From Patescibacteria group bacterium (GTDB lineage Bacteria > Patescibacteriota > Microgenomatia > UBA8517): DNA of 64,000 nt. Each line of letters begins with the position of its first letter. Within the stretch, counting starts at the first letter, position 1. The position numbers were made by a program, and so were the translations under genes. The stretch covers positions 5,447 to 69,446 of the forward strand of contig JAOAEL010000003.1 of assembly GCA_026416845.1 (NCBI GenBank), in the 5' to 3' direction. Shown in pieces: positions 2,799 through 36,106 of this stretch. The notes beneath the pieces were generated by a model that saw only the letters and a list, made by a program, of their open reading frames with translations, ran no database searches and was not told the DNA's origin.

Positions 2799-2867
2799 TG
2801 ACACTTCAATGTTATTATACAACAAATTTAAATTACCAACAAAACGAATATCACAAATTAAAAACTG

Positions 2868-2939
2868 AGCGCTCGGGCAGAATCGAACTGCCATTAATAG
2901 TTCCGGAAACTATTGCTTTATCCATTAAGCTACGAGCGC
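2868..2939 (-). tRNA. tRNA-Arg (anticodon CCG)
   Basis: Reverse complement folds as a cloverleaf: acceptor GCGCTCG/CGAGCGC, anticodon stem ATAGT/ACTAT, loop TTCCGGA giving anticodon CCG, T-arm GGCAGTTCGATTCTGCC. No encoded CCA. Confidence 0.8.
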
Positions 2940-4736: not shown

Positions 4737-5379
4737 TTAGAATTTGACGTCAGTCTTTATAATATCTGGCAAATAAGGTTCGTGAATAGCTGTTGAGATT
4801 TGCCAAGCCAAAACCAAAACATTACCTTTTGCTTTGTGTTTTTTAGTATATGCACGCAGATATCTCCAAGTGAGGTTTGTCAGTGTATATTTTTCTGGAA
4901 CATCTTTTTCCAATATATCTTTGATGGCCAGTTTTTTATCGTGTATTTCGGGAAAAGAAAAACTTAAATTTCTATCTCTGAAACCAACTATAAAAATTTT
5001 TCTTTGTGTTGTGGAATAATAACCTTTGCACTTATATGATAAAAAATATACCAAACCTTCCAAGGTCTCTTTTATTACAGAAAAAGTTATGCCATTATCC
5101 TGTCTTTCAAGATTCTCTACGTTTTCCGAGAAAAAGTCTTTGTTTTTTTTCTCTCTGATTATTCCTACTATTTCGTAAAATAAAGTTCCTTGCGCTTGGT
5201 CTGCAAAACCGTTCGGTCTGTCAAGACTATTCTTTTTTGATATGCCGGAAATAGAAAAAGATTAACAAGTGAACCTAACAAAATATCAAGTTCAGAAATT
5301 TCAGACGTAGAACTTTTTCTAATATCTCCTAGCAAAAAACCACCTCCCCCAAAGCCAATAAATCTTGAGATATACTCAT
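4737..5379 (-). pseudogene. Decayed DNA (cytosine-5)-methyltransferase (Dcm family): frameshifted and internally deleted
   Basis: On the minus strand three different frames carry consecutive C5-MTase pieces. (1) MSISQDLLALGEVVFC* and GFGGGGFLLGDI..ELDILLGS, which is motif I (FxGxGG) followed by a DI..GG region whose PCQ motif is lost. (2) RPNGFADQAQGTLFYEIVGIIREKKNKDFFSENVENLERQDNGITFSVIKETLEGL, which is motifs IV-VI (ENV motif intact). (3) The ORF-track ORF 4737-5063 with GYYSTTQRKIFIVGFR (motif VIII QxRxR) and the LKDILE..EKYTLT start of the target-recognition domain. The spacing between motif I and motif IV is far too short. Confidence 0.6.
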
Positions 5380-5454
5380 TAGAAACAAATTAACATTATA
5401 CAGATCATTAAGCGTTTTTTTAAACACACCTTTAATAAAACCTATGCAGAAAAT

Positions 5455-6054: not shown

Positions 6055-6199
6055 CTACTTTATTAATTCATCAATTTTAATCCCAAGCCCATTTGCGATT
6101 TTTGCAACTGTATGAATTGAGGGTTTGGTTATAACATTGCTTTCAATTTTGGTTAGTGTCGTATAGGGGAGATCGGATTTTCTCGCCAATTTGTCCTGA
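6055..6199 (-). pseudogene. Truncated XRE-family HTH protein (controller/C-protein-like), N-terminus missing
   Basis: Minus-strand translation LDQDKLARKSDLPYTTLTKIESNVITKPSIHTVAKIANGLGIKIDELIK* matches helix 2 to helix 5 of XRE/Cro-type HTH domains (LSQEELAxKSGVSxSTISxIExG...P.L.TL.KIAKALGV..DEL). An in-frame TAG lies immediately upstream with no Met, so the first helix is lost. Confidence 0.45.
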
Positions 6200-6480
6200 T
6201 CTAATCCCTACTTATTTCTAATTTTTAAACTGTTTTATCTTATTTTCATTAATGGTTTCATTTAATTATTGTTTTGACTTTTTATAGTTCAAAGCATGAT
6301 AGTACTAGTATAAATGCTTATCAAAAACACTAAAAGATTTTACAAGTTTCATAAAAAATGGGCAAAACTGGATCCTGATCTTCCGTTTCGCGAAACAAAG
6401 GCAAAAAACTCAATTTTGCACCTAAAATCGGCTGAAAATTTATCACGAATGGCGAACTCAATTTCATTTCTTCTAACTTG

Positions 6481-6566
6481 CGGAGGTGGCGGGATTCGAA
6501 CCCGCGGGACTCTATTCGAGTCGAGGTTTAGCAAACCTCTGCCATAGGCCTCTAGGCGACACCTCC
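6481..6566 (-). tRNA. tRNA-Ser (anticodon GCU), class II with long variable arm
   Basis: Reverse complement GGAGGTGTCGCCTAGAGGCCTATGGCAGAGGTTTGCTAAACCTCGACTCGAATAGAGTCCCGCGGGTTCGAATCCCGCCACCTCCG. Acceptor GGAGGTG/CACCTCC, anticodon loop TTGCTAA, variable arm GACTCGAATAGAGTC, T-arm CGCGGGTTCGAATCCCGCC. Confidence 0.85.
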
Positions 6567-6643: not shown

Positions 6644-7249
6644 ATGGTAACTATGCCATCCCAAGAAAAAACAAATTCTTCTACAAATGAAAAAGACAGT
6701 GAACCAATTAAAAAAAATAAATCTGAAGAAGTAGAAATTTTTTCTTGGGAAGGACCCAATATACCAGTTGTTAAGTACAATAAAGAGTTTTGGCTTTCAG
6801 CGGTAGTTATAGGAGGAATAATAAGTTTAATACTTTATATAACTGAAGGAATAATACCCGTAATATTAATTATTGCCTTAGGCTTTTTCTATTTCGTTCT
6901 TTCTTCAGTAAAACCTGAAACATTAAAATTTTCAATCACTAACAAAGGTATCAAAATTCAAGAGAATTTAATTGAGTGGAATTATTTGTACAGATATTGG
7001 TTTTCATATTGGATGGGAAACACAATACTTGTATTTCAAACATCTAGGTTTGGCGGTAGATTAGAAATTGTTATAAACAAAGATGATAAAAATAAAATAA
7101 GACAAGCACTTAGTGATTATGTTTATGAAGAACAAAATACACCAAGCAACATAGATAAACTTGCAACCTGGTTTTCCGAAAACATCGATCGAAAAAAAGC
7201 AAAATTACAACAAAACAACCAAGAATTAGCAAATAAAGCAAATAAATAG
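6644..7249 (+). CDS. Membrane protein with bacterial PH-like (YdbT/bPH_2-type) domain
   Basis: Hydrophilic N-term, two adjacent TM helices (WLSAVVIGGIISLILYI / IPVILIIALGFFYFVL). The following ~100-aa segment LKFSITNKGIKIQEN...TILVFQTSRFGGRLEIVINKDDKNKIRQAL has the beta-rich 'membrane-flanked' pattern of PF03703-type domains. Confidence 0.35.
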   Translation: MVTMPSQEKTNSSTNEKDSEPIKKNKSEEVEIFSWEGPNIPVVKYNKEFWLSAVVIGGIISLILYITEGIIPVILIIALGFFYFVLSSVKPETLKFSITNKGIKIQENLIEWNYLYRYWFSYWMGNTILVFQTSRFGGRLEIVINKDDKNKIRQALSDYVYEEQNTPSNIDKLATWFSENIDRKKAKLQQNNQELANKANK

Positions 7250-7466
7250 TACACTTTAATTCTAATCCTTTTCAAACTTATTAAACACAAAATTAAAAAA
7301 ACGATAAATTCTTACTAAATGTTATTTTAATTTGATAAGCTTACCAGTTAACAAATTTATTTCGCTTTAATATTAGTTATAGCGTACTTGCAATAATAAA
7401 TAGGCAACAATAAGGTTGTACTATAAGATAAGCATCGTTCCTAAACAAATATAAACCAAAGACGGT

Positions 7467-9080
7467 TTAAGCAACTTCAATACCTCTTTGTTGCAAAAAA
7501 TATTCAAGTTCGAGCAAATTTGTAATATAACGAAGATTGTTGTCCTCTAAATATCTTCCTTCCCTATCCTCTTTTAAATCATTGATTATCCTGTCTCTGA
7601 ATATATAACCTTTCTCGCCAAGAAGGGAGTTTTCAAGTAAATTGAGGATAAAATCCTTTTTGTCAGTTAAAAATCTGCCGTAATGTTCTTCTGTGCCTAC
7701 CTTTTCTTTGAATTGCGAATCCACAAAAATATCTCTTCTTCTTTTCAGCAAATCTCGCTTTGAAACATCCTTAATAGTATCAAAAGGAACCATGCTTGTA
7801 ACCTCTATCACCCGTGTGTCTACAAAAGGAGAAATTGGCCACACATTCGCCTCCCAAACAAAGGGGAACATTATGACCGAAAGGTAAGTAGCTGATTGGG
7901 GTATTACTGAGGCGTACGGAACCTTTTTTCTGAATCTTCCTCGATCGAGAAGAATACCTAGTGCTTTGTCTGTAAGCATACCCCCCACACCCTCTTGTGC
8001 CATAGATTGATACCTAAAGTAACTAGTATGAATCGGGAACTTAACTTTTAACCTTAATGACTTTCTTGTAGACCAGTAAGCCTCGTCACCTCCTTCGCCA
8101 TTGAAGCGAACATTAATCCCATCCTTCTTAATAAACTTAAAAAACGCATCAACCTGAGATTTTTGTATGTAACTTGGCCCTTCTTGCAAGATAAAATTCA
8201 GATCTTCTTTTGTAGAGAAAGGAAATATCTCATCGTACTCAAAAAATTTAACTTTTAACCCATGCTTTTTTGCAAAATCAAGCACAATTGCTGGATCAGT
8301 ATCACCATATGCAAATTTAGATATTTCGCTATAGCACATAAGTTCTCCTTTGTGGTTTTTGGATAGCAAATAGCATATAAGGGAACTGTCAAAACCAGAT
8401 GATATATCCGCACAAACCAAATGCTCGTTTTTTAGAGCCTTTAATCTGTCTTTAACAGATTCTTCAAGGGTAAAAATAAACCAATCGATAAATTCTTCTT
8501 TACTCTCGAACGTTTTCTTACTTTCTATGATTTTTTCATTCCTAAAAAGAGAAATAATTTCACATTTACCATTTTTAAACCTTGCTAGCATACCCGGAGG
8601 CAAAAGCCAAAGATTTTTGATGATTGTTGCCTTCCTTATCGAAGTATCACCTAATATAAACTCCAAAGCTCCCTCGATATCAAGAGATGGCTTGGCTATT
8701 GAACCAAGCACATCACGAAAAGATGTAGAAACCACAAATCCCTTACTGTTTTCGTACACATAACACGGGAATCTCCCAGTTTGGTCACTCAAAATCAAAA
8801 AATCTTTCTTCCTGGTATCAATTAAGAAAATAACAAAGTTTGCATTCAGATTTGCCACCTCGTGAAAGCCGTTATTCTCCAACAAAAGATTTGCCAACTT
8901 ATCAAGACTTATTTTGGGAAAATAAGATACAAAGTAACCTCCTAACACCATCTCTTCTCTTTTTACAAGAAACCTCTCAGGAAAGCTGTTACTAGGCAAT
9001 GTAACCTTTGACAAAAGGTAATCAATATCCTTAGTTTGCAATTCTTCCCAACTAATTTGAAAGTAAAAATGTTTTCTCAT
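7467..9080 (-). CDS. Asparagine synthetase B-like ATP-dependent amidotransferase homolog lacking the N-terminal nucleophile Cys (lasso-cyclase-like)
   Basis: C-terminal synthetase domain motifs LVCADISSGFDSSLICYLL (SGGxDS PP-loop) and NGEGGDEAYW (GEGADExFgGY). N-terminal Ntn-like domain retained in degenerate form (GNFVIFLIDTRKKDFLILSDQTGRFPCYVY...VVSTSFRDV), but the protein begins MRKHFYF with no Cys2. 537 aa. 8-bp gap to the upstream RRE-like ORF. Confidence 0.6.
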   Translation of the reverse strand: MRKHFYFQISWEELQTKDIDYLLSKVTLPSNSFPERFLVKREEMVLGGYFVSYFPKISLDKLANLLLENNGFHEVANLNANFVIFLIDTRKKDFLILSDQTGRFPCYVYENSKGFVVSTSFRDVLGSIAKPSLDIEGALEFILGDTSIRKATIIKNLWLLPPGMLARFKNGKCEIISLFRNEKIIESKKTFESKEEFIDWFIFTLEESVKDRLKALKNEHLVCADISSGFDSSLICYLLSKNHKGELMCYSEISKFAYGDTDPAIVLDFAKKHGLKVKFFEYDEIFPFSTKEDLNFILQEGPSYIQKSQVDAFFKFIKKDGINVRFNGEGGDEAYWSTRKSLRLKVKFPIHTSYFRYQSMAQEGVGGMLTDKALGILLDRGRFRKKVPYASVIPQSATYLSVIMFPFVWEANVWPISPFVDTRVIEVTSMVPFDTIKDVSKRDLLKRRRDIFVDSQFKEKVGTEEHYGRFLTDKKDFILNLLENSLLGEKGYIFRDRIINDLKEDREGRYLEDNNLRYITNLLELEYFLQQRGIEVA

Positions 9081-9087
9081 CTTTCAG

Positions 9088-9378
9088 CTATTTTTCAATT
9101 ATTATACCTTCGCTAATCATCAGGTCGATAAAATCTCTAACTTTTGTTTCATCTAACCCACATTTCAAAAGCACTTCCTCTAAACTAACCCCGGGAAACT
9201 CATAAATAAATCTTATGACTTTGTAACCCAAAGGCGAAACTTCAATGTGGCTCCACGAGCGATAACTATAAACTACACTAAAGTACCCATTAAGACTATC
9301 CAAATAGTCATCAAAAAATACAGAACGATCGTTGACAAATAAGCACATAAAGTTTTTCCTCTGAAAATAGTAGGCCAC
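9088..9378 (-). CDS. PqqD-like RiPP recognition element (RRE)-type small protein
   Basis: 96 aa, GTG start. C-terminal two-thirds LGYKVIRFIYEFPGVSLEEVLLKCGLDETKVRDFIDLMISEGIIIEK follows the PqqD/RRE pattern (L...IW.ll.G..sveEi...L...y.vd...v..Dv..Fl..L...Gli), with a beta-strand-rich N-part. Translationally coupled to the AsnB-like gene. Confidence 0.45.
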   Translation of the reverse strand: MAYYFQRKNFMCLFVNDRSVFFDDYLDSLNGYFSVVYSYRSWSHIEVSPLGYKVIRFIYEFPGVSLEEVLLKCGLDETKVRDFIDLMISEGIIIEK

Positions 9379-9440
9379 AAGTCATAAAATAGGCAATTAA
9401 AATTAAGCTAATTTGAAAAAAACAAAAACACACAAATCTG

Positions 9441-9512
9441 TGGGCCTTGATGGAGTCGAACCATCCTCTGGACTTTATAAGAATCCCGTCCTAACCGATG
9501 AACGAAAGGCCC
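9441..9512 (-). tRNA. tRNA with anticodon UAU (Ile, AUA-reading type)
   Basis: Reverse complement GGGCCTT TC GTTC ATCGGTTA GGAC G GGATT CTTATAA AGTCC AGAG GATGG TTCGACT CCATC AAGGCCC A. All four arms pair (one G-U in the D stem and one in the anticodon stem), with U33, A37, G53-C61, T-loop TTCGA and discriminator A73. Anticodon positions 34-36 are TAT. Confidence 0.7.
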
Positions 9513-9541
9513 TTGCACAAAGCCAATTATATCAAAAAAGA

Positions 9542-11866
9542 TTACAATTTTGCTCTCCTTGCAATCTCTTTTTCTACAAGCCTTACATCTCTTCCATATT
9601 TAAGCCTGCTGTTTTCCTTTATAATTTGTGCTACTCTTTCGTCTCTGTTTTTTATCTTCTGCACAATATCAGCCGAGAGCTTCATGGAAAACTGGGGGAC
9701 AGGTTCATTTTGTACAATGGTACGAACATATACATGATATTTTTCGATATTTAACAAATCTTCCTCCGAGAAAACCGGTGAAAATTCGCGAGCCAAATAA
9801 TTGGCATCCGTAACACCTACGCGATAAGTAATAATAGTTCCAACATTCCCAATTATTGCGTTTTTCACTTCTTCGTCAATTTGCCCAATAAATTGGTTTG
9901 CCACAGTAAGTGCAAGTTTGTACTTTCTGGCCTCGGAAAGTATTTGGGCAAAATCAGGAGTAGCAAAATTCTGAAATTCATCTACATATAGATAAAAATC
10001 ACGTCTTTGATCTTCTGGAATATCTGCTCTACTCATAGCCGCCATTAATATCCTTGGAACCAAAACAAGTCCTAAAAAACTGGAGTTTTCCTCTCCCAAC
10101 TCACCTTTCGAAAGATTTATCAATAAAATCTTTCCCTGATCCATAACTTCTCTAAAATTAAAAGATGATTTAGATTGTCCAATAATATTTCTTATCAAAC
10201 GATTGGTAACAAACCTTCCAAATTTTGAGGTAATATAATCAAGAACTTCAGATTTGTGAAAATCAGAAGTTTGAGCGATCTGATCTGTCCAATAACGTCT
10301 AACAATTGGGTCTTGCACCTTCGGCAAAAGTTCTTGCACATAGCGAGAATCAGTAAGAGCGCGCATTAGTTCCACAAAGGTGGTTCCGGGTTCTGACAAA
10401 ATAGTAAGAATTGCGTTTCTTACAGCATGCTCAAAACGAGGTCCAACTATTCCAGTTTTGTAAGGGTCAAAAAGTTTATACATCATGTTGATTACTGATG
10501 TGGCAACAAAGTGTTTCTGATCCTCCGTATAAGCCTCCATCAAATTAAGTCCCATAGGACGCTCAGAATCTGATGGTCTGAAATAAATCACATCATCAAC
10601 TCTTTCAAGCGGAATCATCCCCAACAACTCTTCCACCGCATCTCCATGCGGATCCATAAAGCATAGTCCTTTACCAGCTTCAATATCTTGCAAAATCAAG
10701 CTTTGCAAAAATTTAGTTTTACCAGTACCAGTTTTTCCTATAATGTACATATGCCGTTGTCTATCAAATTCAGAGATATATACCTTTCGCTCTATTCCAC
10801 GATAAATGGAAGTTCCCAAGAAAAGACCTTCTGTTGGAATTTCAGCTGGAGCAGGAGCTGATTTGGCATAAAGCCAATGAATGTGCGGTGTTGTAATTTG
10901 CTTATTTGGAAAGTGAAATATTGTTGCCAATTCTTCAGAATTTAGTATTGACACCCTGTTACTGCCAAAATTGAACATCGGTTGATATCGATACAAAAAA
11001 TCATCTATAAAATCTCCCTTTTTTATTATCGTTCTTTTGCCAAAACCATTAAACTCGCCATTAAACGCCTCAAAAGCGCTCATTATGTTTGTCAAATGCG
11101 CTTTTGCAGAAGGTTCATCATTTGCTACAGTAACAATGCGAATAGAAGTTTCAAATCCTGGCTTTGAGCATTTATTTTCCACTGCTTCCAAAGTTCTGGA
11201 AGAAACTGAAAATTTTGCCTTTTCTGGATCGGCTTCCTGTTTTTTTGTTGTAGCGATGAAATCTCTACCCTGTTTTTGCCAAGAATCATTAACCGGAGAT
11301 ATTAAAACCTGTATCGCAGCAGCTTCATCGTGGCCCATCTTAGCAAGAGCAGAAGTAATAACTGCCAAAGGATCAGTTGGTAAATCTTTAAAAACCTTTA
11401 TAGGGTAATAATTTTCCTTCTTAAGTTGCAAAGATGCATAAGCAACTTTGCCATGTTCTGTAAATATATTGTATTCTTCAACTTGTTTGATTTCCGCGTC
11501 AGGATAACAGCCATGGATTTGCTTTTCTATGAGATCTCTAAACTCATTGGGTGTCCATACATAAAACCGTATATCTTCAGGGCGAGCAACCAATTCAAAT
11601 GACACTGCAGGTTCCGTCGAATACTTTCTGCCGCTTTTGATAGAATAAAGCGCCGCAAAAAGTTGTTCCATTGCATCAATCCTAATTTCGTTTCCTTTGG
11701 GAACCGCTATCTGAAGTAAAACTGAATTTAAAGATCTTTCCTCTCGACCACGATTTTTGATAAAAACAAAAGCTATATAAACTCCAGCACCCAATAAAAG
11801 CACAAAAATTACCAAAAAAAACAGTGTTAAAAGCAAAATCGTAGGATCAAAAAAATCATTTCCCAT
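9542..11866 (-). CDS. TraD/VirD4/VirB4-like (type IV secretion-type) P-loop NTPase with N-terminal transmembrane anchor
   Basis: 774 aa. N-terminal TM helix (ILLLTLFFLVIFVLLLGAGVYIAFVFI). Walker A IIGKTGTGKTKFL and Walker B FYLYVDEFQNF. Domain order (membrane anchor, all-alpha region, RecA-like ATPase with C-terminal extension) resembles T4CP/AAA_10/DUF87-type conjugative ATPases. Confidence 0.5.
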   Translation of the reverse strand: MGNDFFDPTILLLTLFFLVIFVLLLGAGVYIAFVFIKNRGREERSLNSVLLQIAVPKGNEIRIDAMEQLFAALYSIKSGRKYSTEPAVSFELVARPEDIRFYVWTPNEFRDLIEKQIHGCYPDAEIKQVEEYNIFTEHGKVAYASLQLKKENYYPIKVFKDLPTDPLAVITSALAKMGHDEAAAIQVLISPVNDSWQKQGRDFIATTKKQEADPEKAKFSVSSRTLEAVENKCSKPGFETSIRIVTVANDEPSAKAHLTNIMSAFEAFNGEFNGFGKRTIIKKGDFIDDFLYRYQPMFNFGSNRVSILNSEELATIFHFPNKQITTPHIHWLYAKSAPAPAEIPTEGLFLGTSIYRGIERKVYISEFDRQRHMYIIGKTGTGKTKFLQSLILQDIEAGKGLCFMDPHGDAVEELLGMIPLERVDDVIYFRPSDSERPMGLNLMEAYTEDQKHFVATSVINMMYKLFDPYKTGIVGPRFEHAVRNAILTILSEPGTTFVELMRALTDSRYVQELLPKVQDPIVRRYWTDQIAQTSDFHKSEVLDYITSKFGRFVTNRLIRNIIGQSKSSFNFREVMDQGKILLINLSKGELGEENSSFLGLVLVPRILMAAMSRADIPEDQRRDFYLYVDEFQNFATPDFAQILSEARKYKLALTVANQFIGQIDEEVKNAIIGNVGTIITYRVGVTDANYLAREFSPVFSEEDLLNIEKYHVYVRTIVQNEPVPQFSMKLSADIVQKIKNRDERVAQIIKENSRLKYGRDVRLVEKEIARRAKL

Positions 11867-12446: not shown

Positions 12447-12983
12447 TTACCTTTTTTCAAATACCCATATTTGCTCATCTATTCCGACTCTAAAATTTTC
12501 ATTTCTTGCAAGGGTAAAAAGATAATCTGATAAACGATTTAGAAACATAAGTACAGTTGATTTTATTTTCATATAAGAGGATAAAGCAACCATTCTGCGT
12601 TCCAGTAAACGCGCAAGCGTTCTAGCATAATGTAAATGAGAAGCAACAACTGATCCTCCTGGCATGACAAAATTGGCAAGCTTGGGCAACATTTTTTCCA
12701 TTTGATCAATTTGAATTTCTAAGTCAGTTGTAAATTTTTTAGTAAAAGGCAACTTTGCACCTGCAATAATTGATCCAATTGTTAGTAACCTAATTTGAAT
12801 TTTTGTAATCTTGTTATTCAAATCTTCAGATTCATTAAAAGATTTTACTACACCAAGATAGCTATTAAGCATATCCAATTCTCCAAGAACTTCTATAATT
12901 AAAGAGTCTTTGGGAATCCTATTTTTAGTTTGGCGTATAGTTTGTGTGGTACCTTTATCTCCTTTTTTGGTGTAAATTGGCAT
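12447..12983 (-). CDS. pduO: ATP:cob(I)alamin adenosyltransferase, PduO type
   Basis: N-terminal MPIYTKKGDKGTTQ (IYTRTGDxGxT signature of PduO-type ACA) and ~178 aa all-helical remainder. Confidence 0.75.
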   Translation of the reverse strand: MPIYTKKGDKGTTQTIRQTKNRIPKDSLIIEVLGELDMLNSYLGVVKSFNESEDLNNKITKIQIRLLTIGSIIAGAKLPFTKKFTTDLEIQIDQMEKMLPKLANFVMPGGSVVASHLHYARTLARLLERRMVALSSYMKIKSTVLMFLNRLSDYLFTLARNENFRVGIDEQIWVFEKR

Positions 12984-13209
12984 GTTTCATCATTCGCCAA
13001 ACATTTTGACATCACAATAAAAAACAAGATTGAATAAAGTAAAATGCTAAAAATTCAAAATCTAAAAAAACACATTCAAAGAGACTTGCCTGAAGCCGCT
13101 AAGTGGTCATAAAAGCTCTAAGCGTAAAACTTATAGCTTCCTGTTTATCACAGGATCTGGCGCCAACATAGCAGCCTCCGACAAGTCTTTTTGAAAATGT
13201 TAATCAATC

Positions 13210-15615
13210 CTAATTCTCAACAAAAAAATTATTTTGGGTAGAATTATTTAATTTGGAATAATCTTCAATTTCGCAAATTCCAGCAGTACAAGCAAGCTCT
13301 TGTGCAACTGTGGTGTAATCTTCTTCTTCGTATCTATAAATTTTAGAAAAATCAATATTAGGGAAAACACTTGCCAACTTTTCATACTCTTCTTTCGTTA
13401 TCTCTTCATAAGGCATTTGGGCATATTTGGCATTCATTGCTGGCAAAAAACTCATACCTCCAATATACTCCCTATGTTCCCACAACCAACGGGTAAGATC
13501 AAGTATCTCATAAGGCTGATAAGTAATTGTTACACTTGGATTATGCTCTGTCCAAAATATTTTGTTTTGCAACCAATATTCACACTGTGCAATTGCTCCT
13601 CTGTCTTTTTGGGTGATAGCACCATCAGGAGACTTAACAGGAAAATGAGCCACGTAAATAGTAGCATTTTCTAAAGTTTGACCATTTTCAGGATCCATAG
13701 GCACACCAGCATCTTTTAAAACTTTAAACACAGGAGTATGCGCCCCAACACGAACATTGCGAATATAGTAAGGAGCCATTCTAGCATGAAGACCTGATGA
13801 AGTATTTAAAAGTTGCGAAGAATTCCCTGAAGGCTTGACACAAGTTACTGCCGCAGATTGATTGATCTTAAAACGCTCCGCATAGATTCTATTAGTCTCA
13901 ACCGCCACTTGCCTAAGCCTCATCATAACAGAAGGGTCTTGAACCACTGGACAATCCATTTGTCCTGTAATATCAACTCCCAAAAGGCGCTCTTCTTCAC
14001 AATTTTTCTTCCATATCGGTCTTAAACCGGGAAAATGCGTAGCTAAAGATTGAATTGTGCCTAGGATAGTAGCCACTTCTACTTTTTCGCGCAAACTTTC
14101 ATACGTGTCTTCTTGACGCGCCACAGCTATGGACAAATTGCAAAATTCATTAGGACGCAAATTTATTTCCCCACAAGGATTTGTGCCAAAACGCGCTTCT
14201 TTTCTTCTTTCAGGCCGAAACTTAATCGCACCAGGTCTATTAAATATTCCAGGCTCTCCGCGCTCGCTTTCAAACATATCAAGCATCAACCTCATAAATT
14301 CTTGTTGAGTAATTCCTCCCTCCGGGATTACAACTGAATTATTAGCGTTCCACCTTTGCCAATTATCACGCTCGAAGTCTCCAGATTTTGCAAGTCTCAT
14401 ATCCATATCGTCCCAATCAAAAAGCGAAATCATAGCGGTTCTTCTGACTCCGCCTGAAACAGCCGCATGCCCTACCATACACATAATGTCATGCGCATCA
14501 ATCGTTCGCAAAAAACTACCTTGCCTGGCAAGTATCCTGTTCTTGGCAAAATCAAGCATTTGTTTTAGAGGTTCAGGTCCTGAGGCACGCCCTCCCTTTA
14601 CTTTAAGAATTGCACCTGCAGACCTAACCTGAGAATAATCAAATTTTATATCTCCACCATCCAGCCATGTGTTCATACCAATACGAAGCGCTTCTATCCA
14701 TCCTTCCGTAGTATCGGGAATAACAAAAGTGTCCTTTGTTTTGCCTGTTTGCCTTTTTACACGAGGAAGTTTTTCAACATACACGCTTTCTACTGAGAAA
14801 CCAACACCGCAACCACTCATGGAAATCAAAAGCGCTTCGCAAAAAGCATCCACACTGTCAACTGGCAAATAGGAACAGTTATAAATGCTAATGTTTTGAC
14901 GTCTTGCGCATTCGCCAGCTGTAGCAATCAATCTCATAGAGGGCATGGCTTTCATTTCTAAAATCATTGTTCGCAGTCTCTCATACTCTTGAGTCTTCAA
15001 AGCGTCGCCAGCAAGTTCGCGCAAGAAAGATACAGAACGATCTACCGTTTCTACCCATGTTTCTCTCCTGCCAAGCGTGTAGTTAAAACGAGAATACTTA
15101 TCAAAAAATTGAAACTTCTGAAGCTGTGTTGGAAAAAACTTGTCTGATTCTTCAAAAGCTTGCTTTACTTCTGGAGGGATCGGTCTAACTTCGCGGAGTT
15201 TGGCGTGTTCAGCCCTATACAAAATATATCTTTTTGCCGCTTCAAACTCACCTGCGGCTTGAAGAACTATTTCAACCGCGTCTTGCACATGCTCAACATT
15301 TGGAAGTTCATATTTGGCAGAAATTATATTTGCCACCCACTTTGCCAAATTAGAAACAGGTATCTCAGGAGTGCGATTAAAGGATGCAAAGCATTTTTCC
15401 ATTGCTGTTTCTATTTTCTTGATATCAAATTCCACCACCCGACCATCGCGCTTTTTTATTAACTTTGGCCATTTGGAACTATCAAAAGGCGCTTTAGTTT
15501 CCTTAATAAAATTAATCATTGAAGCGTTTGACGAGTGTCCGTTGGCTTGAGACGACTGACTATTTTTTACTTTTTTGGTTTTTGTGTTTTCAATTTTGGC
15601 TTTTTGTAATGACAT
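13210..15615 (-). CDS. nrdJ: Ribonucleotide reductase, large catalytic chain, probably adenosylcobalamin-dependent class II (NrdJ-like)
   Basis: 801 aa. N-terminal ATP-cone-like region. Catalytic barrel motifs including NPCGEI (active-site Cys/Glu region), with further Cys in the C-terminal tail. Cotranscribed downstream of nrdR and adjacent to a cobalamin adenosyltransferase, which supports B12 dependence. The class assignment is inference. Confidence 0.7.
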   Translation of the reverse strand: MSLQKAKIENTKTKKVKNSQSSQANGHSSNASMINFIKETKAPFDSSKWPKLIKKRDGRVVEFDIKKIETAMEKCFASFNRTPEIPVSNLAKWVANIISAKYELPNVEHVQDAVEIVLQAAGEFEAAKRYILYRAEHAKLREVRPIPPEVKQAFEESDKFFPTQLQKFQFFDKYSRFNYTLGRRETWVETVDRSVSFLRELAGDALKTQEYERLRTMILEMKAMPSMRLIATAGECARRQNISIYNCSYLPVDSVDAFCEALLISMSGCGVGFSVESVYVEKLPRVKRQTGKTKDTFVIPDTTEGWIEALRIGMNTWLDGGDIKFDYSQVRSAGAILKVKGGRASGPEPLKQMLDFAKNRILARQGSFLRTIDAHDIMCMVGHAAVSGGVRRTAMISLFDWDDMDMRLAKSGDFERDNWQRWNANNSVVIPEGGITQQEFMRLMLDMFESERGEPGIFNRPGAIKFRPERRKEARFGTNPCGEINLRPNEFCNLSIAVARQEDTYESLREKVEVATILGTIQSLATHFPGLRPIWKKNCEEERLLGVDITGQMDCPVVQDPSVMMRLRQVAVETNRIYAERFKINQSAAVTCVKPSGNSSQLLNTSSGLHARMAPYYIRNVRVGAHTPVFKVLKDAGVPMDPENGQTLENATIYVAHFPVKSPDGAITQKDRGAIAQCEYWLQNKIFWTEHNPSVTITYQPYEILDLTRWLWEHREYIGGMSFLPAMNAKYAQMPYEEITKEEYEKLASVFPNIDFSKIYRYEEEDYTTVAQELACTAGICEIEDYSKLNNSTQNNFFVEN

Positions 15616-15670
15616 AACAGCAAAATCTATAAAATTAAATTTAATAAATTTTTAAACAAGCTATAAAGTT

Positions 15671-16114
15671 TTACTTTTTTTCTATAGCCTTTGCGAAATC
15701 TTCTAAATCTTCAAATTCAAGATAAACACTAGCAAACCTTAACCATGCCACTTTGTCTATTTTTTTTAGACGTCTTAGAACCGCTTTGCCTATTGTCGAC
15801 GAATAAATTTCGTCGCGCCCTTTTTTAAACATTTCTTGTTCAACATTGTTGACTAAACTCTCAACTAAATCCAAGGATACCGGCCTTTTCTCTATCGCTT
15901 TTAATATCCCTTTTCTAACTTTTTCCCGATCAAAAGGCTCTCTTAAACCATTTTTCTTTACTACCCATAAAGAGCTTTTTTTTACCCGCTCATAGGTAGT
16001 AAAACGTTTTTTGCACTTTAGACATTTACGACGACGCCTAATACTTTCATGCTCGTTATCCACTCGCGATTCTAAAACCTGCGAATCTAAAAAACCGCAA
16101 CATGGACACTTCAT
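15671..16114 (-). CDS. nrdR: Transcriptional repressor NrdR
   Basis: MKCPCCGFLDSQVLESRVDNEHESIRRRRKCLKCKKRFTTYERV: N-terminal C4 zinc ribbon plus ATP-cone, 147 aa. Highly characteristic. Confidence 0.9.
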   Translation of the reverse strand: MKCPCCGFLDSQVLESRVDNEHESIRRRRKCLKCKKRFTTYERVKKSSLWVVKKNGLREPFDREKVRKGILKAIEKRPVSLDLVESLVNNVEQEMFKKGRDEIYSSTIGKAVLRRLKKIDKVAWLRFASVYLEFEDLEDFAKAIEKK

Positions 16115-17487: not shown

Positions 17488-18138
17488 TTATCTAAACAAA
17501 ATAATTGGCCACTCCCAAAGAAAATGGAGAAAAATTGGAGCGATAATATTTTTAGTCTTTGCAAAAACATAACTAGCGCCAACTCCAAAGACAAAAGTCA
17601 AAAACAAATAAGTCAAAGAGTCCATAAGGTTAAATTGCCACCACAAAAAACTCACAGGCAAATGCACTAAAGACCATAAAAAACTTGATAAAAGATTGGG
17701 AATCCAAATTCCACCCAAAGCATGTTTCAATCTGGTATAAACATACCCTCTAAACGCAATTTCTTCAGAAATTGCAGTTGCAACTGAAATAATCAAAGCA
17801 GTATAGAATTCTCCTCCAATATTCGCCCCAAAATGAACCCAGCGGTATTTGATGATGTTTATCAATAAACCAAAAATAGCAAACAAAACTCCCAACCCCA
17901 AAACCCAATAAATTGAAGCAAAAAGCCCTTTCCCCGAAATACCAATTGTGGAAATGCTCGATTTCTCTTTTCTAAGCAAAAAAAAGACAGGTATAAGCCA
18001 AATAATTGGCTTTAAAAATAATTCTTCGATATCTTCAGGAAGTTTGTACAAAAACCTGTAAATTCCCCAAACCAAAAAAAGATATGCAAAAAAATAAATT
18101 GCGTTTCTGAAAGCTGTTTCTTTTCTAGGCATAGTCAT
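17488..18138 (-). CDS. CPBP-family intramembrane metalloprotease (CAAX protease/Abi-like)
   Basis: Multi-TM protein with the three CPBP motifs: EEIAFRGYVY (EExxxR), FLWSLVHL (FxxxH), HFLWEW (HxxxN/D-like). Confidence 0.65.
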   Translation of the reverse strand: MTMPRKETAFRNAIYFFAYLFLVWGIYRFLYKLPEDIEELFLKPIIWLIPVFFLLRKEKSSISTIGISGKGLFASIYWVLGLGVLFAIFGLLINIIKYRWVHFGANIGGEFYTALIISVATAISEEIAFRGYVYTRLKHALGGIWIPNLLSSFLWSLVHLPVSFLWWQFNLMDSLTYLFLTFVFGVGASYVFAKTKNIIAPIFLHFLWEWPIILFR

Positions 18139-18181: not shown

Positions 18182-18727
18182 TTAAGCTAGTTTTAGTCTT
18201 GCTCTTTTATCTTTATTTTGATGCAAATCTAACCTGCACTGCTCAAAAGCTTTATCCATCGCGCTAACAATCAATTTTATGCATTTTTTGGCTTGGGCAA
18301 AAGTAAGAATGTTCTGAGAGTTAGGAAACCAATGAAAAACCAAATTTCTGCCATGTTTCCAAGCATTCCACAAAGTATCAGGAAGTTTATTGCCCCCACA
18401 ATACAAAACTAAACGATCATACACACTTTCATCTTTTCTAAACCTGGGTTCAAGAGCTGGATTTAAAGCGCGACCAATGCGAAATTTTTTGCCATTAAAA
18501 TCCTCTTTTGAGATGAATCCTAAATCATAAAAAAGAGTTTTCAAAAACCCTTCATAAGCCTTGGCAGCCGGAAAGACAATAAAGGAGTAGTCATGAAAAG
18601 TGTTGCGCCACAACCTCACATGATAAACCAACAAAATAGATTCCCTAAGAAGTTCTTGCATCTCACGATCTAAATAATGCCACCAACGCTTATTCTCTAA
18701 TTCATTTTCTGTGATAAACACATGCAT
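18182..18727 (-). CDS. Hypothetical protein, possible HEPN-like domain
   Basis: 181 aa, helical. R-x4-H arrangement (WKHGRNLVFHW) near the end of the predicted helical bundle, as in HEPN RNase-like domains. Weak. Confidence 0.2.
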   Translation of the reverse strand: MHVFITENELENKRWWHYLDREMQELLRESILLVYHVRLWRNTFHDYSFIVFPAAKAYEGFLKTLFYDLGFISKEDFNGKKFRIGRALNPALEPRFRKDESVYDRLVLYCGGNKLPDTLWNAWKHGRNLVFHWFPNSQNILTFAQAKKCIKLIVSAMDKAFEQCRLDLHQNKDKRARLKLA

Positions 18728-33352: not shown

Positions 33353-36106
33353 TTAATAATTTTCGATCTCTTTTTTTGCTTCCTCAAATATCTTAATAGC
33401 TTTATCAACTTGATTAGCTTTAACATATAAAGCGGTCAAATCTTCATAAACCGGAAAGTATTTATAATTCCAAAACAAATCAGGGTTAAATGCTTTTAAT
33501 TCCTCATAAAGAGATATCGCATCTTCACACCTTTGCTGTCTTTCATAAACCATAGCTAAAGTTCTTATATTGTCATAATTCTGGAAAAATGCGGCAGGCA
33601 AGTTTTTTCTTGCTTCCTCAAGCATAATTGCCGCTTGGTCATAGTCCCAAATTCCATCCCGTAAATATATTTCTTGCGCATAAAAACCAACCTCTTTTGC
33701 ATAAAACTTTCCGGCTTTACTTTTTATCTCACTAGCAAAAGTGACCAATTTATCACGCGTGATATAACCACTCCTTACCCATTCTAAATAAAGTTGCATC
33801 AATTTATGAAAAGGAGGCAAATAATCACTATCATCCCAAAATTTGGATTCTTGCCAAGTTTTAAACTCTTCATAAATTTTAATTTGTTCATCAATTTGCC
33901 CATCGTATAAACTTGCTATCTGAAGCACATTAAGCTTTTGATCGTAAAAAAGCTCTGGATTTTCGCTTCTTGCTTTTTGCATAAACAATCTAGCCTTATC
34001 TATAAGCTTCTTTTTGGATTTTCCTTTCGCTCTTTTCGCTTTGCTGATATAGTTAAATGTCAATTCATATATCCTTGAATAATAAGCCTGAGGATTTTTG
34101 TGTTTAGTTTCTTCAAATATTTTCAAAGCCGCATCTAAATCATCAAAATAATAAATACAAAACATAGCATGATCAATGCTTATTTCCTCCCAATAAAGAC
34201 TTGTTTTTTTGCTACGAATTTCTTCCAAAAACCGCATTTTTTGATTACCAGGCAAAATCTTTGCTAAACCAACATAAGCCTTGCCATCACAAGGATTAAT
34301 ATCAATATTTTTCTTTAAAAGATACATTCCTATGTCAACATAGTTTTTAGTGATAAATTGGCCTGTGTTACTGGCAAAAGATGAATTAATACAAACATTT
34401 CCATCCTTGTCTGGAGCCATAACTAAATGCGGGTATGGAATACTGGCTTTCCAAATTTCTTTTTGTTCCGTATAGGGATTAATCCTTATGAATAGATTAG
34501 GGATATCTTTAACTTGTCGTAACTGTTTATCATTTTCCACTCCTTGACGAGTATTTTCAGTTATGTATGTCAAAAATTTTGAGCTAACAGGAATAAAACG
34601 AGCGTTAACAAAAGCCATCTTTTTATATTTTAAAAAGGTCTGAATTTCCAAGTTTGAAACCAAAGGATTTCTCTTTCTTAGACCATCAATTAATTGTTCA
34701 TCAGTCTGGCTTTCTAAACCAAGGATGTTTTCAAAGCTTGTGTCCATGACAAGTTTACGTCCGCTGGGCAAATCAAACTCGCAACAAACATGCCCCTTAG
34801 TGTTATTATCTAACATCTCTTTTACACAACTAGCCCGCGCTCTAATCCCCAAATATTTAGAAATTGCAAGCAAAACACTCACTTTACCTGCACATACTGC
34901 TTCTTCTTTTTCCAAAACTTCAGTTAAGTTAGTGACCAAGTTGCCTAAATTAGGAAAAATCCGATCTAATTTATTACCAATAAAGATTAATAAACTTTGT
35001 ACCTGCTCGTCCAATTTCACAAGTTTTAGTCTTTCTTCAACTCTATCAAAATCTAGATTGCTTATTTTTCTAGCTTGATCTTGCAATTCTGAAAATTTCT
35101 TGCGCAAACTGACAATATCTATAGCTTCGTCTTTGTCGGGATTTTCAAATCCAGAGTTTGAAATAACAAAACTGCATTTATCTTTGAAACTATTTTGGAG
35201 CTTCAAAATTCTTTCTTTTTTTTCTTCATCATTTAAAGGTAATTTGTCTACTTTTATAATCTCATCTTTTAAATTGTCAAATTCTTGAGCCAAATTATTG
35301 CTTTCAATTACTTTTGCATAAGAGGAATCAAATTCATAACCTTCCAATATAGAAAATAATTTGCGAAACTTGCCAACAAAACCAAGCGGATTTTGCATTC
35401 TATTTAAAACCCTTGCAACATTTAACGTAAATGCGGTTTCTATATACTCGTTAATTAAAATATCAGCCAATGTCTGCACTTGTTTTGTATCTAGCCGATT
35501 GGAAATTGCCTTTAATATTTTTGGGGACTGAACCAATTTCTTAATTTTTTGCTTTGCTCGATTGCTTAATTTTGCCACATTTGTTTCGACAAGTTTTTGG
35601 TAATAATCTTTCTCTTTATCTCCCTCACATAAACCTAGCCCAATACGATCAATTATGCTTTTCCACGCTAAAACTTTGACTTCTAGCTCGCTACTCGCAC
35701 TATCATGTACGCAGTTTTGCAAAACATCAAACAACAATTTTGCCCGCGCAGAAACCATAGCAAGCTTGTCAATTAATCTAGATCTTTTTCCTAACAAAGT
35801 TCTAATAAATTCTTCTTGATTTTTAATTGCTTTTTTCTCAGGGGTATATCTTGAGAAATCTGTTATTTCTCCTTTTCTTGCTTGATCAAGCAAGGATTCT
35901 CTTAGTTGCAAAATTAGTTCAGCAACTCCAAAAAGCGAGGTCATTTTTGCTTTAACTTCCTCAGATAAATTTAAATTATTATCCTTTGCTATTTTGATTC
36001 CACACTGTTCCTGCAATACATAAGTTACTCCTAAAATTAACTTTGCTAGTTTCTCTTCTGCTAAAGAACTCAAATGATTAACAAAATGCTCCAATTTGCT
36101 ATTCAT
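33353..36106 (-). CDS. Large transglutaminase-like cysteine protease-core protein with C-terminal TPR-like repeats
   Basis: 917 aa. Central CAGKVSVLLAISKYLGIRARASCV ... KGHVCCEFDLPSGRKLVMDTSF gives the Cys/His/Asp triad pattern of transglutaminase-like domains (G.C.e.a.l...lR.lGIPAR.v.G ... H.w.Ev...g.W...D). N-terminal ~380 aa helical/coiled-coil. C-terminal ~350 aa with repeated Y/F-x-x-A/L helical-hairpin (TPR-like) units. Confidence 0.5.
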   Translation of the reverse strand: MNSKLEHFVNHLSSLAEEKLAKLILGVTYVLQEQCGIKIAKDNNLNLSEEVKAKMTSLFGVAELILQLRESLLDQARKGEITDFSRYTPEKKAIKNQEEFIRTLLGKRSRLIDKLAMVSARAKLLFDVLQNCVHDSASSELEVKVLAWKSIIDRIGLGLCEGDKEKDYYQKLVETNVAKLSNRAKQKIKKLVQSPKILKAISNRLDTKQVQTLADILINEYIETAFTLNVARVLNRMQNPLGFVGKFRKLFSILEGYEFDSSYAKVIESNNLAQEFDNLKDEIIKVDKLPLNDEEKKERILKLQNSFKDKCSFVISNSGFENPDKDEAIDIVSLRKKFSELQDQARKISNLDFDRVEERLKLVKLDEQVQSLLIFIGNKLDRIFPNLGNLVTNLTEVLEKEEAVCAGKVSVLLAISKYLGIRARASCVKEMLDNNTKGHVCCEFDLPSGRKLVMDTSFENILGLESQTDEQLIDGLRKRNPLVSNLEIQTFLKYKKMAFVNARFIPVSSKFLTYITENTRQGVENDKQLRQVKDIPNLFIRINPYTEQKEIWKASIPYPHLVMAPDKDGNVCINSSFASNTGQFITKNYVDIGMYLLKKNIDINPCDGKAYVGLAKILPGNQKMRFLEEIRSKKTSLYWEEISIDHAMFCIYYFDDLDAALKIFEETKHKNPQAYYSRIYELTFNYISKAKRAKGKSKKKLIDKARLFMQKARSENPELFYDQKLNVLQIASLYDGQIDEQIKIYEEFKTWQESKFWDDSDYLPPFHKLMQLYLEWVRSGYITRDKLVTFASEIKSKAGKFYAKEVGFYAQEIYLRDGIWDYDQAAIMLEEARKNLPAAFFQNYDNIRTLAMVYERQQRCEDAISLYEELKAFNPDLFWNYKYFPVYEDLTALYVKANQVDKAIKIFEEAKKEIENY

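Follow-up and report, generated by a model that had tools for sequence, protein, structure and literature searches.

A rare cysteine-less asparagine-synthetase-like enzyme and its RRE partner in Patescibacteria as the candidate enzyme half of a compact, lasso-related peptide-modification module

In a 64,000-nucleotide stretch of a Patescibacteria group bacterium (positions 5,447 to 69,446 of contig JAOAEL010000003.1, assembly GCA_026416845.1; hereafter, the window), two adjacent genes raise the question of what kind of peptide modification, if any, they carry out. One encodes a homolog of asparagine synthetase B (AsnB), here named the AS-like (for asparagine-synthetase-like) protein, and the other a small protein encoded directly upstream of it. 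The initial annotation saw in the pair the core of a lasso-peptide pathway, that is, a recognition element (RRE) for peptides that are ribosomally synthesized and then modified post-translationally (RiPPs), coupled to a peptide cyclase, and it listed a non-canonical peptide-modification system among the ways to account for the missing parts. Our analysis retains the peptide-modification core, finds that its lasso character is not demonstrable, and favors the non-canonical option. In our reading, to which we give a probability of about 60%, the pair supplies the enzymes of a compact RiPP-type module that occurs mainly in Patescibacteria, and the AS-like protein is a lasso-derived macrolactam synthetase that works independently of a leader protease.

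New peptide chemistry is increasingly being found among AS-like enzymes. Approximately 3,800 of them occur with RiPP elements, of which about 3,500 are lasso cyclases, a handful modify peptide C-termini, and about 300 have no known function (PMC13060819). The literature that we searched contains no description of the present module or of its precursor, and the module is a hitherto uncharacterised variant of RRE-guided AS-like peptide modification. It provides one uncharacterised AS-like group with a concrete, testable prediction of substrate and site, in a lineage whose ribosomal natural products have barely been studied; with three genes in less than 2.2 kb, it is also convenient for heterologous expression. 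The interest lies more in the family, as a compact candidate for a new RiPP class, than in the incomplete locus of the window.

The AS-like protein carries the motifs attributed to it at the outset, SSGFDSS at residues 227-233 and GEGGDE at residues 328-333, and has no Cys at position 2, the glutaminase nucleophile. Its Pfam match (PF00733, Asn_synthase; 39.1 bits versus a cutoff of 21), its PP-loop and its two-domain fold place it in the asparagine synthase superfamily; the Cys nucleophile and the equivalog-level score of a bona fide glutamine-dependent AsnB are both absent. More specific models stay below their cutoffs: the NCBIfam model asn_synth_AEB (TIGR01536) gives 56.8 bits versus 267, the lasso cyclase model NF033535, which is the second-best NCBIfam match, 40.3 bits versus 525, and an albusnodin-type macrolactam cyclase model 34.7 bits versus 300. 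The generic AsnB model thus outscores the lasso-cyclase model. An AlphaFold model built from 15 family sequences (pLDDT 91.5) combines a C-terminal PP-loop ATP-pyrophosphatase/synthetase domain with an Ntn-glutaminase-like domain at the N-terminus that has no Cys nucleophile. The best Foldseek matches, drawn from a PDB that has no lasso cyclase among its structures, are TsnB9, the carbapenam synthetase CarA, AsnB and beta-lactam synthetase, which align over both domains at E-values of 1e-16 to 1e-12.

These features hold across the family. In an alignment of 61 full-length members, whose identity to the window protein is 19-54%, the S-S-G-x-D positions of the PP-loop are kept in 55-61 sequences, G328 and P418 in all 61, G330, G331, D332 and E333 in 56-60, and K/R441 in 59; E329 is variable, and the glutaminase Cys2 is missing in 60. 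As the Cys is absent and the synthetase site retained, the protein looks, from its sequence, like an active adenylating enzyme that is probably unable to take ammonia from glutamine. Beta-lactam synthetase, carbapenam synthetase and lasso cyclases are Cys-less AS-like enzymes that perform intramolecular lactamisation, and the predicted role of the present enzyme is ATP-dependent amide-bond (macrolactam) formation on a peptide.

The family is also rare and self-contained. Its profile finds only 75 matches at E<=1e-30 among 1.84 billion representative proteins, after which scores drop sharply. Closest outside the family are other uncharacterised Cys-less AS-like proteins, whose genes sit on contigs of only ~2 kb that reveal nothing about their context; a near-lasso-cyclase and a true AsnB, with about equal scores, lie further out. 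Named family members occur in Microgenomates-type Patescibacteria, and the module's named sources comprise Amesbacteria, Blackburnbacteria, Collierbacteria, Woesebacteria, CPR3 and unclassified Patescibacteria. A few auto-binned TPA metagenome-assembled genomes (MAGs) that contain it (L007, L011, L012, L013) are labelled Gammaproteobacteria or Pseudomonadales; these labels may be wrong, since every curated source of the module is a member of the Patescibacteria.

To see what accompanies the enzyme, we gathered related loci by exact-protein look-up and by scans of genome and metagenome collections, and compared 35 loci by all-against-all clustering of their open reading frames (ORFs). Two genes alone are conserved, AS-like (35/35) and RRE (25/35); the latter lies directly upstream of the former in those 25 loci, usually with overlapping stop and start codons. 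The clustering returned no recurrent protease, transporter or immunity gene. The B2 leader peptidase, whose absence had been noted for the window, is missing from all 35 loci and from the Pfam lists of the neighbors in L001-L006, so that its absence is no local peculiarity. The full module consists, in this order, of a precursor peptide, a discrete RRE and the Cys-less AS-like enzyme.

The identity of the small protein as an RRE has to be argued from family-level PqqD matches and from its fold, since direct tests with hidden Markov models (HMMs) gave no PqqD match. For the window protein, neither Pfam (PF05402) nor NCBIfam returned PqqD at E<1, its only Pfam match is HTH_24 (E=0.0037), and a single-sequence database search returned only the protein itself. 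It aligns well with 23 proteins encoded directly upstream of the AS-like gene in related loci, and 11 of the 24 family members match PqqD at E<=1, the best of them at 8.4e-10. Two relatives score 23.1 bits (L022) and 22.1 bits (L017) versus the PF05402 gathering cutoff of 23.4, and one carries the UniRef name “PqqD family protein”. In the AlphaFold model (pLDDT 87.3), strands at residues 12-15, 34-38 and 43-47 form a three-stranded sheet that precedes a winged-helix-like bundle of three helices (49-60, 66-73 and 77-89), as in the PqqD/RRE fold. The top matches in two fold searches are mostly RiPP RREs, including lasso B1 proteins, over 70-80 aligned residues, and transcription factors match only the helical half. 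The family-level matches and the fold searches support the earlier assignment of the window protein as an RRE.

The same evidence bears on the possibility that no RiPP is involved and that the locus pairs a housekeeping AsnB, or a cell-wall- or tRNA-related paralog of it, with a winged-helix transcription factor. The HTH_24 match would suit such a pair, as would the JGI annotation of one relative as a MarR-family regulator and the fact that the small-protein family profile finds only MarR/BlaI-type regulators among PDB sequences. We consider it very improbable: the glutaminase Cys is gone and the TIGR01536 score far below its cutoff, the family is rare in Patescibacteria rather than universal (75 clusters among the representatives searched), RREs dominate the full-length fold matches, and the pair is strictly linked to a conserved small peptide gene under purifying selection. 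A MarR/BlaI identity for the small protein, suggested by those weak profile matches, was rejected because the regulators align over the helical half only.

That peptide gene is a small ORF of 41-82 aa located just upstream of the RRE gene in almost every related locus. A core HMM detects it in ~25 of the 29 loci whose upstream sequence is long enough, 25 of the peptides were also predicted beforehand by independent gene callers, and a strong GGAGGTGA-type Shine-Dalgarno precedes most of the ORFs. Purifying selection is evident in a pN/pS (the nonsynonymous-to-synonymous ratio) of 0.08-0.43 and in substitutions that cluster at third codon positions. We compiled statistics over 34 distinct sequences, numbered from an invariant Glu at position 0. 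In sequence the N-terminal part is hypervariable, and its length ranges from 11 to 52 residues; the last ~30 residues are conserved. Position -4 is Glu in 25/34 precursors, -3 is Pro in 28/34, and -1 is Ala, Val or Ile in 28/34; positions +1 and +2 are hydrophobic (32/34 each), +3 is Gly (25/34), and +7 is Glu or Asp (31/34). All 34 have the Glu at position 0, a Lys at +11 or +12, and an Asp or Glu at +16 to +18, with the Lys 5-6 residues before this acid. The tail after the invariant Glu always measures 23-25 residues, 6-8 of which follow the last conserved acid, and the distance from the Pro to the acid is exactly 20 in 29 precursors and 19-21 in all 34. Cleavage of a double-glycine leader after E-V-L-G was considered and rejected, as the hydrophobic and acidic residues are not spaced in the way generally known for such leaders. 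One locus has, downstream of its AS-like gene, another precursor-like ORF of divergent sequence (...VAEKLGKFSKMVAKNGAGDKSGIYGH; L039:6989-7159; core HMM E=0.006), so that two substrates are possible in some modules.

The spacing within these precursors invites comparison with lasso leaders, which are described by the rules Y(-17), P(-14), L(-12) and T(-2) and by the RRE motif [Y/W]xxPx[L/V/I/A/F/Y] (PMC12070363, PMC13381572). When the family Pro is placed on P(-14), the Ala/Val/Ile falls on -12, the conserved acid on core position 7 and the invariant Lys on core position 1 or 2, and the Pro-to-acid distance of 20 equals that from P(-14) to acid(7) under these rules. The would-be -2 residue is Ser or Thr in 18/34 precursors. 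At the would-be core position 1, 12/34 have Gly or Ala and the other 22 have Gln, Lys, Glu or Arg. The aromatic residue of [Y/W]xxP is absent from the family.

One way to read this geometry is as a genuine minimal lasso system. An unlinked or housekeeping protease would cut ~11 residues after the invariant Glu, and the new alpha-amine would be joined to the Asp/Glu seven residues on, yielding a cationic lasso of 13-15 aa with a 7-membered ring. The P-x-Phi motif, the canonical Pro-to-acid distance, the acid at core 7 with its tail of 6-8 residues, the frequent Ser/Thr at -2 and Gly/Ala at core 1, and the rank of the lasso-cyclase model as second-best NCBIfam match all speak for it. However, no B2 peptidase occurs in the 35 loci, which come from diverse lineages, or in the window; the residues that occupy core 1 in the majority of precursors are atypical of lasso peptides; the invariant Lys is given no role; and the lasso-cyclase score is 40 bits versus a cutoff of 525. 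We regard this system as unlikely, albeit with enough in its favor to be taken seriously.

Measured against canonical lasso clusters (A, B1, B2, C), the module is similar in its discrete PqqD-like RRE, whose best structural matches include TbiB1 and TfuB1, in its Cys-less AS-like enzyme with an intact adenylation site, in the gene order A, B1, C, and in a precursor that combines P-x-Phi with an Asp/Glu at the core-7 distance. It differs in having no B2 and in an enzyme that belongs to a separate, rare family. The precursor differs as well: the [Y/W]xxP aromatic is missing, position -2 is Ser or Thr in only about half of the sequences instead of Thr, a Lys is invariant at the would-be core 1 or 2, and the N-terminal “leader” is hypervariable while the C-terminal 30 residues are conserved. 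The module therefore falls outside the lasso class on the peptidase and the cyclase score, and shares the RRE with it. Triculamin-type clusters (triA/triC; PMC12070363) likewise have an AS-like macrolactam synthetase and no B2 peptidase, but they have no RRE, a leaderless precursor with a follower, and a cyclase without the N-terminal domain, whereas the present family has an RRE, a long N-terminal part of the precursor and a two-domain enzyme.

The constancy of the tail suggests another possibility, in which the C-terminal carboxylate is modified, as by TsrC, PesC or FzmA, and the distance from the RRE motif to the C-terminus serves as a ruler. A tail that is always 23-25 residues long behind an N-terminal part of 11-52 residues is what such a ruler would produce, and the known non-lasso AS-like RiPP enzymes act at this site with no dedicated protease (PMC13622209, PMC13060819). 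TsrC, ScdTA, PesC (nitrilobacillin) and FzmA (fosfazinomycin) resemble the present family in joining an AS-like enzyme to a short ribosomal peptide without a dedicated leader protease for the AS-like step, and FzmA also uses an RRE, acting on a 22-mer peptide (PMC13622209). The present family, too, has a fixed motif-to-C-terminus distance. However, these enzymes obtain nitrogen from glutamine, ammonia or glutamylhydrazide, and PesC and FzmA, which use glutamine or glutamylhydrazide nitrogen, are expected to need the Cys that 60/61 family members lack. The C-terminal residues of their precursors are conserved, whereas the last residues of our 34 precursors are not, and here it is the internal Lys and acid that are invariant. 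Modification at the C-terminus would leave the invariant internal acid, at its lasso-like distance, unaccounted for. The family thus has neither the functional glutaminase domain nor the conserved precursor C-terminus of these modifiers, and we consider this chemistry improbable.

The reading that we prefer, a macrolactam synthetase acting on an uncleaved precursor, would proceed as follows. The RRE would bind the P-x-[A/V] in the middle of the precursor, which corresponds to one half, “PxPhi”, of the motif by which lasso leaders are recognised, and would present the C-terminal 13-15 residues to the AS-like enzyme. Using ATP and its intact PP-loop site, the enzyme would activate the invariant Asp/Glu, which stands 20 residues after the Pro and 6-8 from the C-terminus, by adenylating its side-chain carboxylate. 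Attack by an amine of the same peptide would then close a macrolactam, the side-chain amine of the invariant Lys being the most likely nucleophile. The Asp/Glu is proposed as the adenylated carboxylate because RRE and enzyme both belong to the lasso type and the motif-to-acid distance is lasso-like. A Lys nucleophile would explain why the Lys is invariant, and, as a Lys amine requires no leader cleavage, it would also explain why the family has no leader peptidase. The choice of carboxylate and amine draws on conservation and on analogy within the superfamily, and our confidence in the individual outcomes varies: a Lys-to-Asp/Glu isopeptide comes close to an even chance, a true lasso formed after cleavage by a protease in trans is a good deal less probable, some other chemistry is less probable still, and C-terminal carboxylate modification comes last.

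If the mechanism is right, the product would resemble graspetides and microviridins in its omega-amide between Lys and Asp/Glu on an uncleaved precursor. Those bonds are made by an ATP-grasp acyl-phosphate ligase, whereas the family would use a PP-loop adenylating AS-like enzyme with a discrete RRE, which would place an adenylation-based route to side-chain macrolactams beside the ATP-grasp route. It would also show a way for lasso machinery to lose its protease, by exchanging the alpha-amine for a Lys side chain, and ultra-small, host-dependent bacteria would make a cationic cyclic peptide of small size. We tentatively propose that the module may define a new RiPP class, somewhat less confidently than the isopeptide itself, in which a lasso-type RRE guides a lasso-cyclase-derived enzyme to form a Lys-Asp/Glu cross-link on the uncleaved precursor, mainly in Patescibacteria (candidate phyla radiation, CPR).

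Variants of the module help to separate the two parts of the precursor. A discrete RRE gene is lacking in L023 (and the identical L024), L041, L043 and L047; in L023 (L023:3120-4929) and L024, the start of the RRE gene, ~12 codons (KYFVNPF...), appears to be fused to the AS-like gene. In a Collierbacteria-type clade, the precursor gene lies directly 5' of the AS-like gene, and KTKKE replaces EPxAE. The clade without the RRE gene has also lost the E-P motif, and it retains the invariant Glu, Lys and acid. This joint loss fits E-P-x-A as the RRE contact and the Lys/acid pair as the reaction site.

Several points weigh against the preferred reading. The Ser/Thr at -2 and the Gly/Ala at core 1 fit a genuine lasso cleavage site. 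The Lys-to-acid span varies (6-7 residues), and the Pro-to-acid distance is more constant. The model leaves two further conserved Glu, at positions 0 and +7, unexplained, and the tight distance to the C-terminus would also fit C-terminal carboxylate chemistry. To these we add the missing PqqD match of the window protein, a chain of biochemical steps that is extrapolated throughout, and the fact that the window copy, having no precursor, says nothing about its own substrate.

We searched the window for a precursor in all six frames with two profile HMMs, a pattern scan built around the invariant Glu and the length of the tail, and a search for small ORFs that follow a strong Shine-Dalgarno, and found none; the search covered 64 kb of a contig of 151.7 kb. 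None of the 25 family precursors in the protein database comes from the MAG to which the window belongs. A 55-aa ORF was inspected as a candidate and does not fit. Where relatives carry the precursor gene, directly upstream of the RRE gene, the window has a tRNA-Ile gene. The lasso B2-type domain Transglut_core3 is likewise absent from the 54 ORFs scanned among the ~57 of at least 110 aa in the window, approximately ten of which have no Pfam match at all. These scans extend to the whole window the earlier observation that no precursor or protease lies nearby. The distant transglutaminase-like protein that had been pointed out, a 917-aa protein with C-terminal tetratricopeptide (TPR) repeats, does not stand as a B2 peptidase: its Transglut_core match, over residues 392-450, is below threshold (E=0.023; 15.4 bits versus a cutoff of 23).

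With no precursor in 64 kb and a tRNA-Ile gene in its place, the window copy is an orphan, either served in trans by a precursor elsewhere or recently disabled. The missing precursor is an exception in the family, and the pair is an incomplete module that should be labelled neither an asparagine synthase nor a lasso cluster. A non-functional remnant would have arisen by a local rearrangement that removed the precursor gene, with the enzyme genes not yet decayed. Beyond the absent precursor and the tRNA-Ile gene, this account could call on the neighborhood at 4-6.6 kb, with its methyltransferase and XRE helix-turn-helix (HTH) fragments and two more tRNA genes, and on the 7-nt gap between the RRE and AS-like genes where relatives usually have a stop/start overlap. 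However, both genes are full length and keep every family-invariant residue, the search covered only 64 kb of the 151.7-kb contig, and a precursor too divergent for the profile may be present. We therefore find a remnant conceivable but doubtful.

The features of the window are listed in Table 1. The upstream ORF does extend to the GTG at 9378, as initially annotated, and the most likely start of the RRE gene is the ATG at 9348, giving 86 aa. This start is favored because the family alignment begins there, the first ten residues of the 96-aa form are disordered in the AlphaFold model, a Shine-Dalgarno-like AGAGGA precedes the ATG, and the NCBI annotation likewise has 86 aa. The spacer between the two genes is 7 nt, correcting an earlier count of 8 bp.

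Table 1. Features of the window, in window coordinates
Feature	Position	Strand	Remarks
AS-like enzyme gene	7467..9080	-	537 aa, begins MRKHFYF
RRE gene (discrete, PqqD-like peptide-binding protein)	9088..9378	-	96 aa from GTG at 9378
Shine-Dalgarno-like AGAGGA	9357..9362	-	8 nt upstream of ATG 9348; read from sequence
tRNA-Ile(TAT)	9440..9512	-	ARAGORN; outside module
tRNA-Arg-CCG	2867-2939		
tRNA-Ser-GCT	6480-6566		
DNA cytosine methyltransferase-like fragment	4737-5063		108 aa; judged by eye
ORF inspected as precursor	5168-5335		55 aa
XRE-type HTH fragment	6055-6189		44 aa; judged by eye
Membrane-anchored ATPase	9542-11866	-	774 aa
Cobalamin/ribonucleotide reductase cluster	12447-16114	-	
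CPBP protease and HEPN/RnlA-like protein	17488-18138 and 18182-18727	-	
Transglutaminase-like protein	33353-36106	-	917 aa

The region around the pair is AT-rich (~33% GC), and both ORFs are intact. A scan of 7000-9700 for promoters and terminators gave nothing above chance, and the PADLOC defence models match neither the AS-like nor the RRE protein. Downstream lie a convergent gene for a 201-aa membrane protein, the tRNA-Ser gene and a run of gene fragments. The three tRNA genes, all within 7 kb, bracket these apparent fragments, and the stretch beside the module suggests an island that has been rearranged or has decayed. Upstream of the RRE gene, the tRNA-Ile gene is followed by that of a TraD/VirD4/HerA-like ATPase, which matches Pfam TrwB_AAD_bind (E=5.7e-8) and also the PADLOC model mad8, a component of the methylation-associated defence system MADS (E=4.4e-17).

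The surroundings of other loci vary. In L002 (L002:1937-6051), on a contig that begins just 167 nt upstream of its AS-like gene, this gene is followed by those of a 7TM_transglut protein and three ATP-grasp (RimK/ATPgrasp_ST) ligases, which are a second, different peptide-modification gene set. Four loci (L010:11316-12764, L022, L043 and L047) have a radical SAM/SPASM enzyme within ~5 kb of the module; judged by eye, its N-terminus resembles PqqD, and the enzyme could act in tailoring or belong to a different RiPP cluster. Genes of type IV pili (PilM/N, T2SS E/F ATPase and platform proteins, prepilin peptidase and pilins) flank the module in L001 and L003-L006, an adjacency that we treat as coincidental since these genes are not conserved across the 35 loci.

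Approximately 8 kb from the window module, an Rce1-like CAAX/CPBP intramembrane protease gene, not conserved near the module in other loci, sits beside the gene of a HEPN/RnlA-like, toxin-resembling protein. CPBP proteases have occasional links to the maturation of bacteriocins or to immunity. Elsewhere the window is housekeeping in character (glycolysis, the pentose-phosphate pathway, a B12-dependent ribonucleotide reductase, PBP1, MetRS and NUDIX proteins). Its compact cluster of a PduO-type cobalamin adenosyltransferase, a class II B12-dependent ribonucleotide reductase with an ATP-cone, and NrdR is an ordinary but tidy case of B12-dependent dNTP synthesis in a reduced genome.

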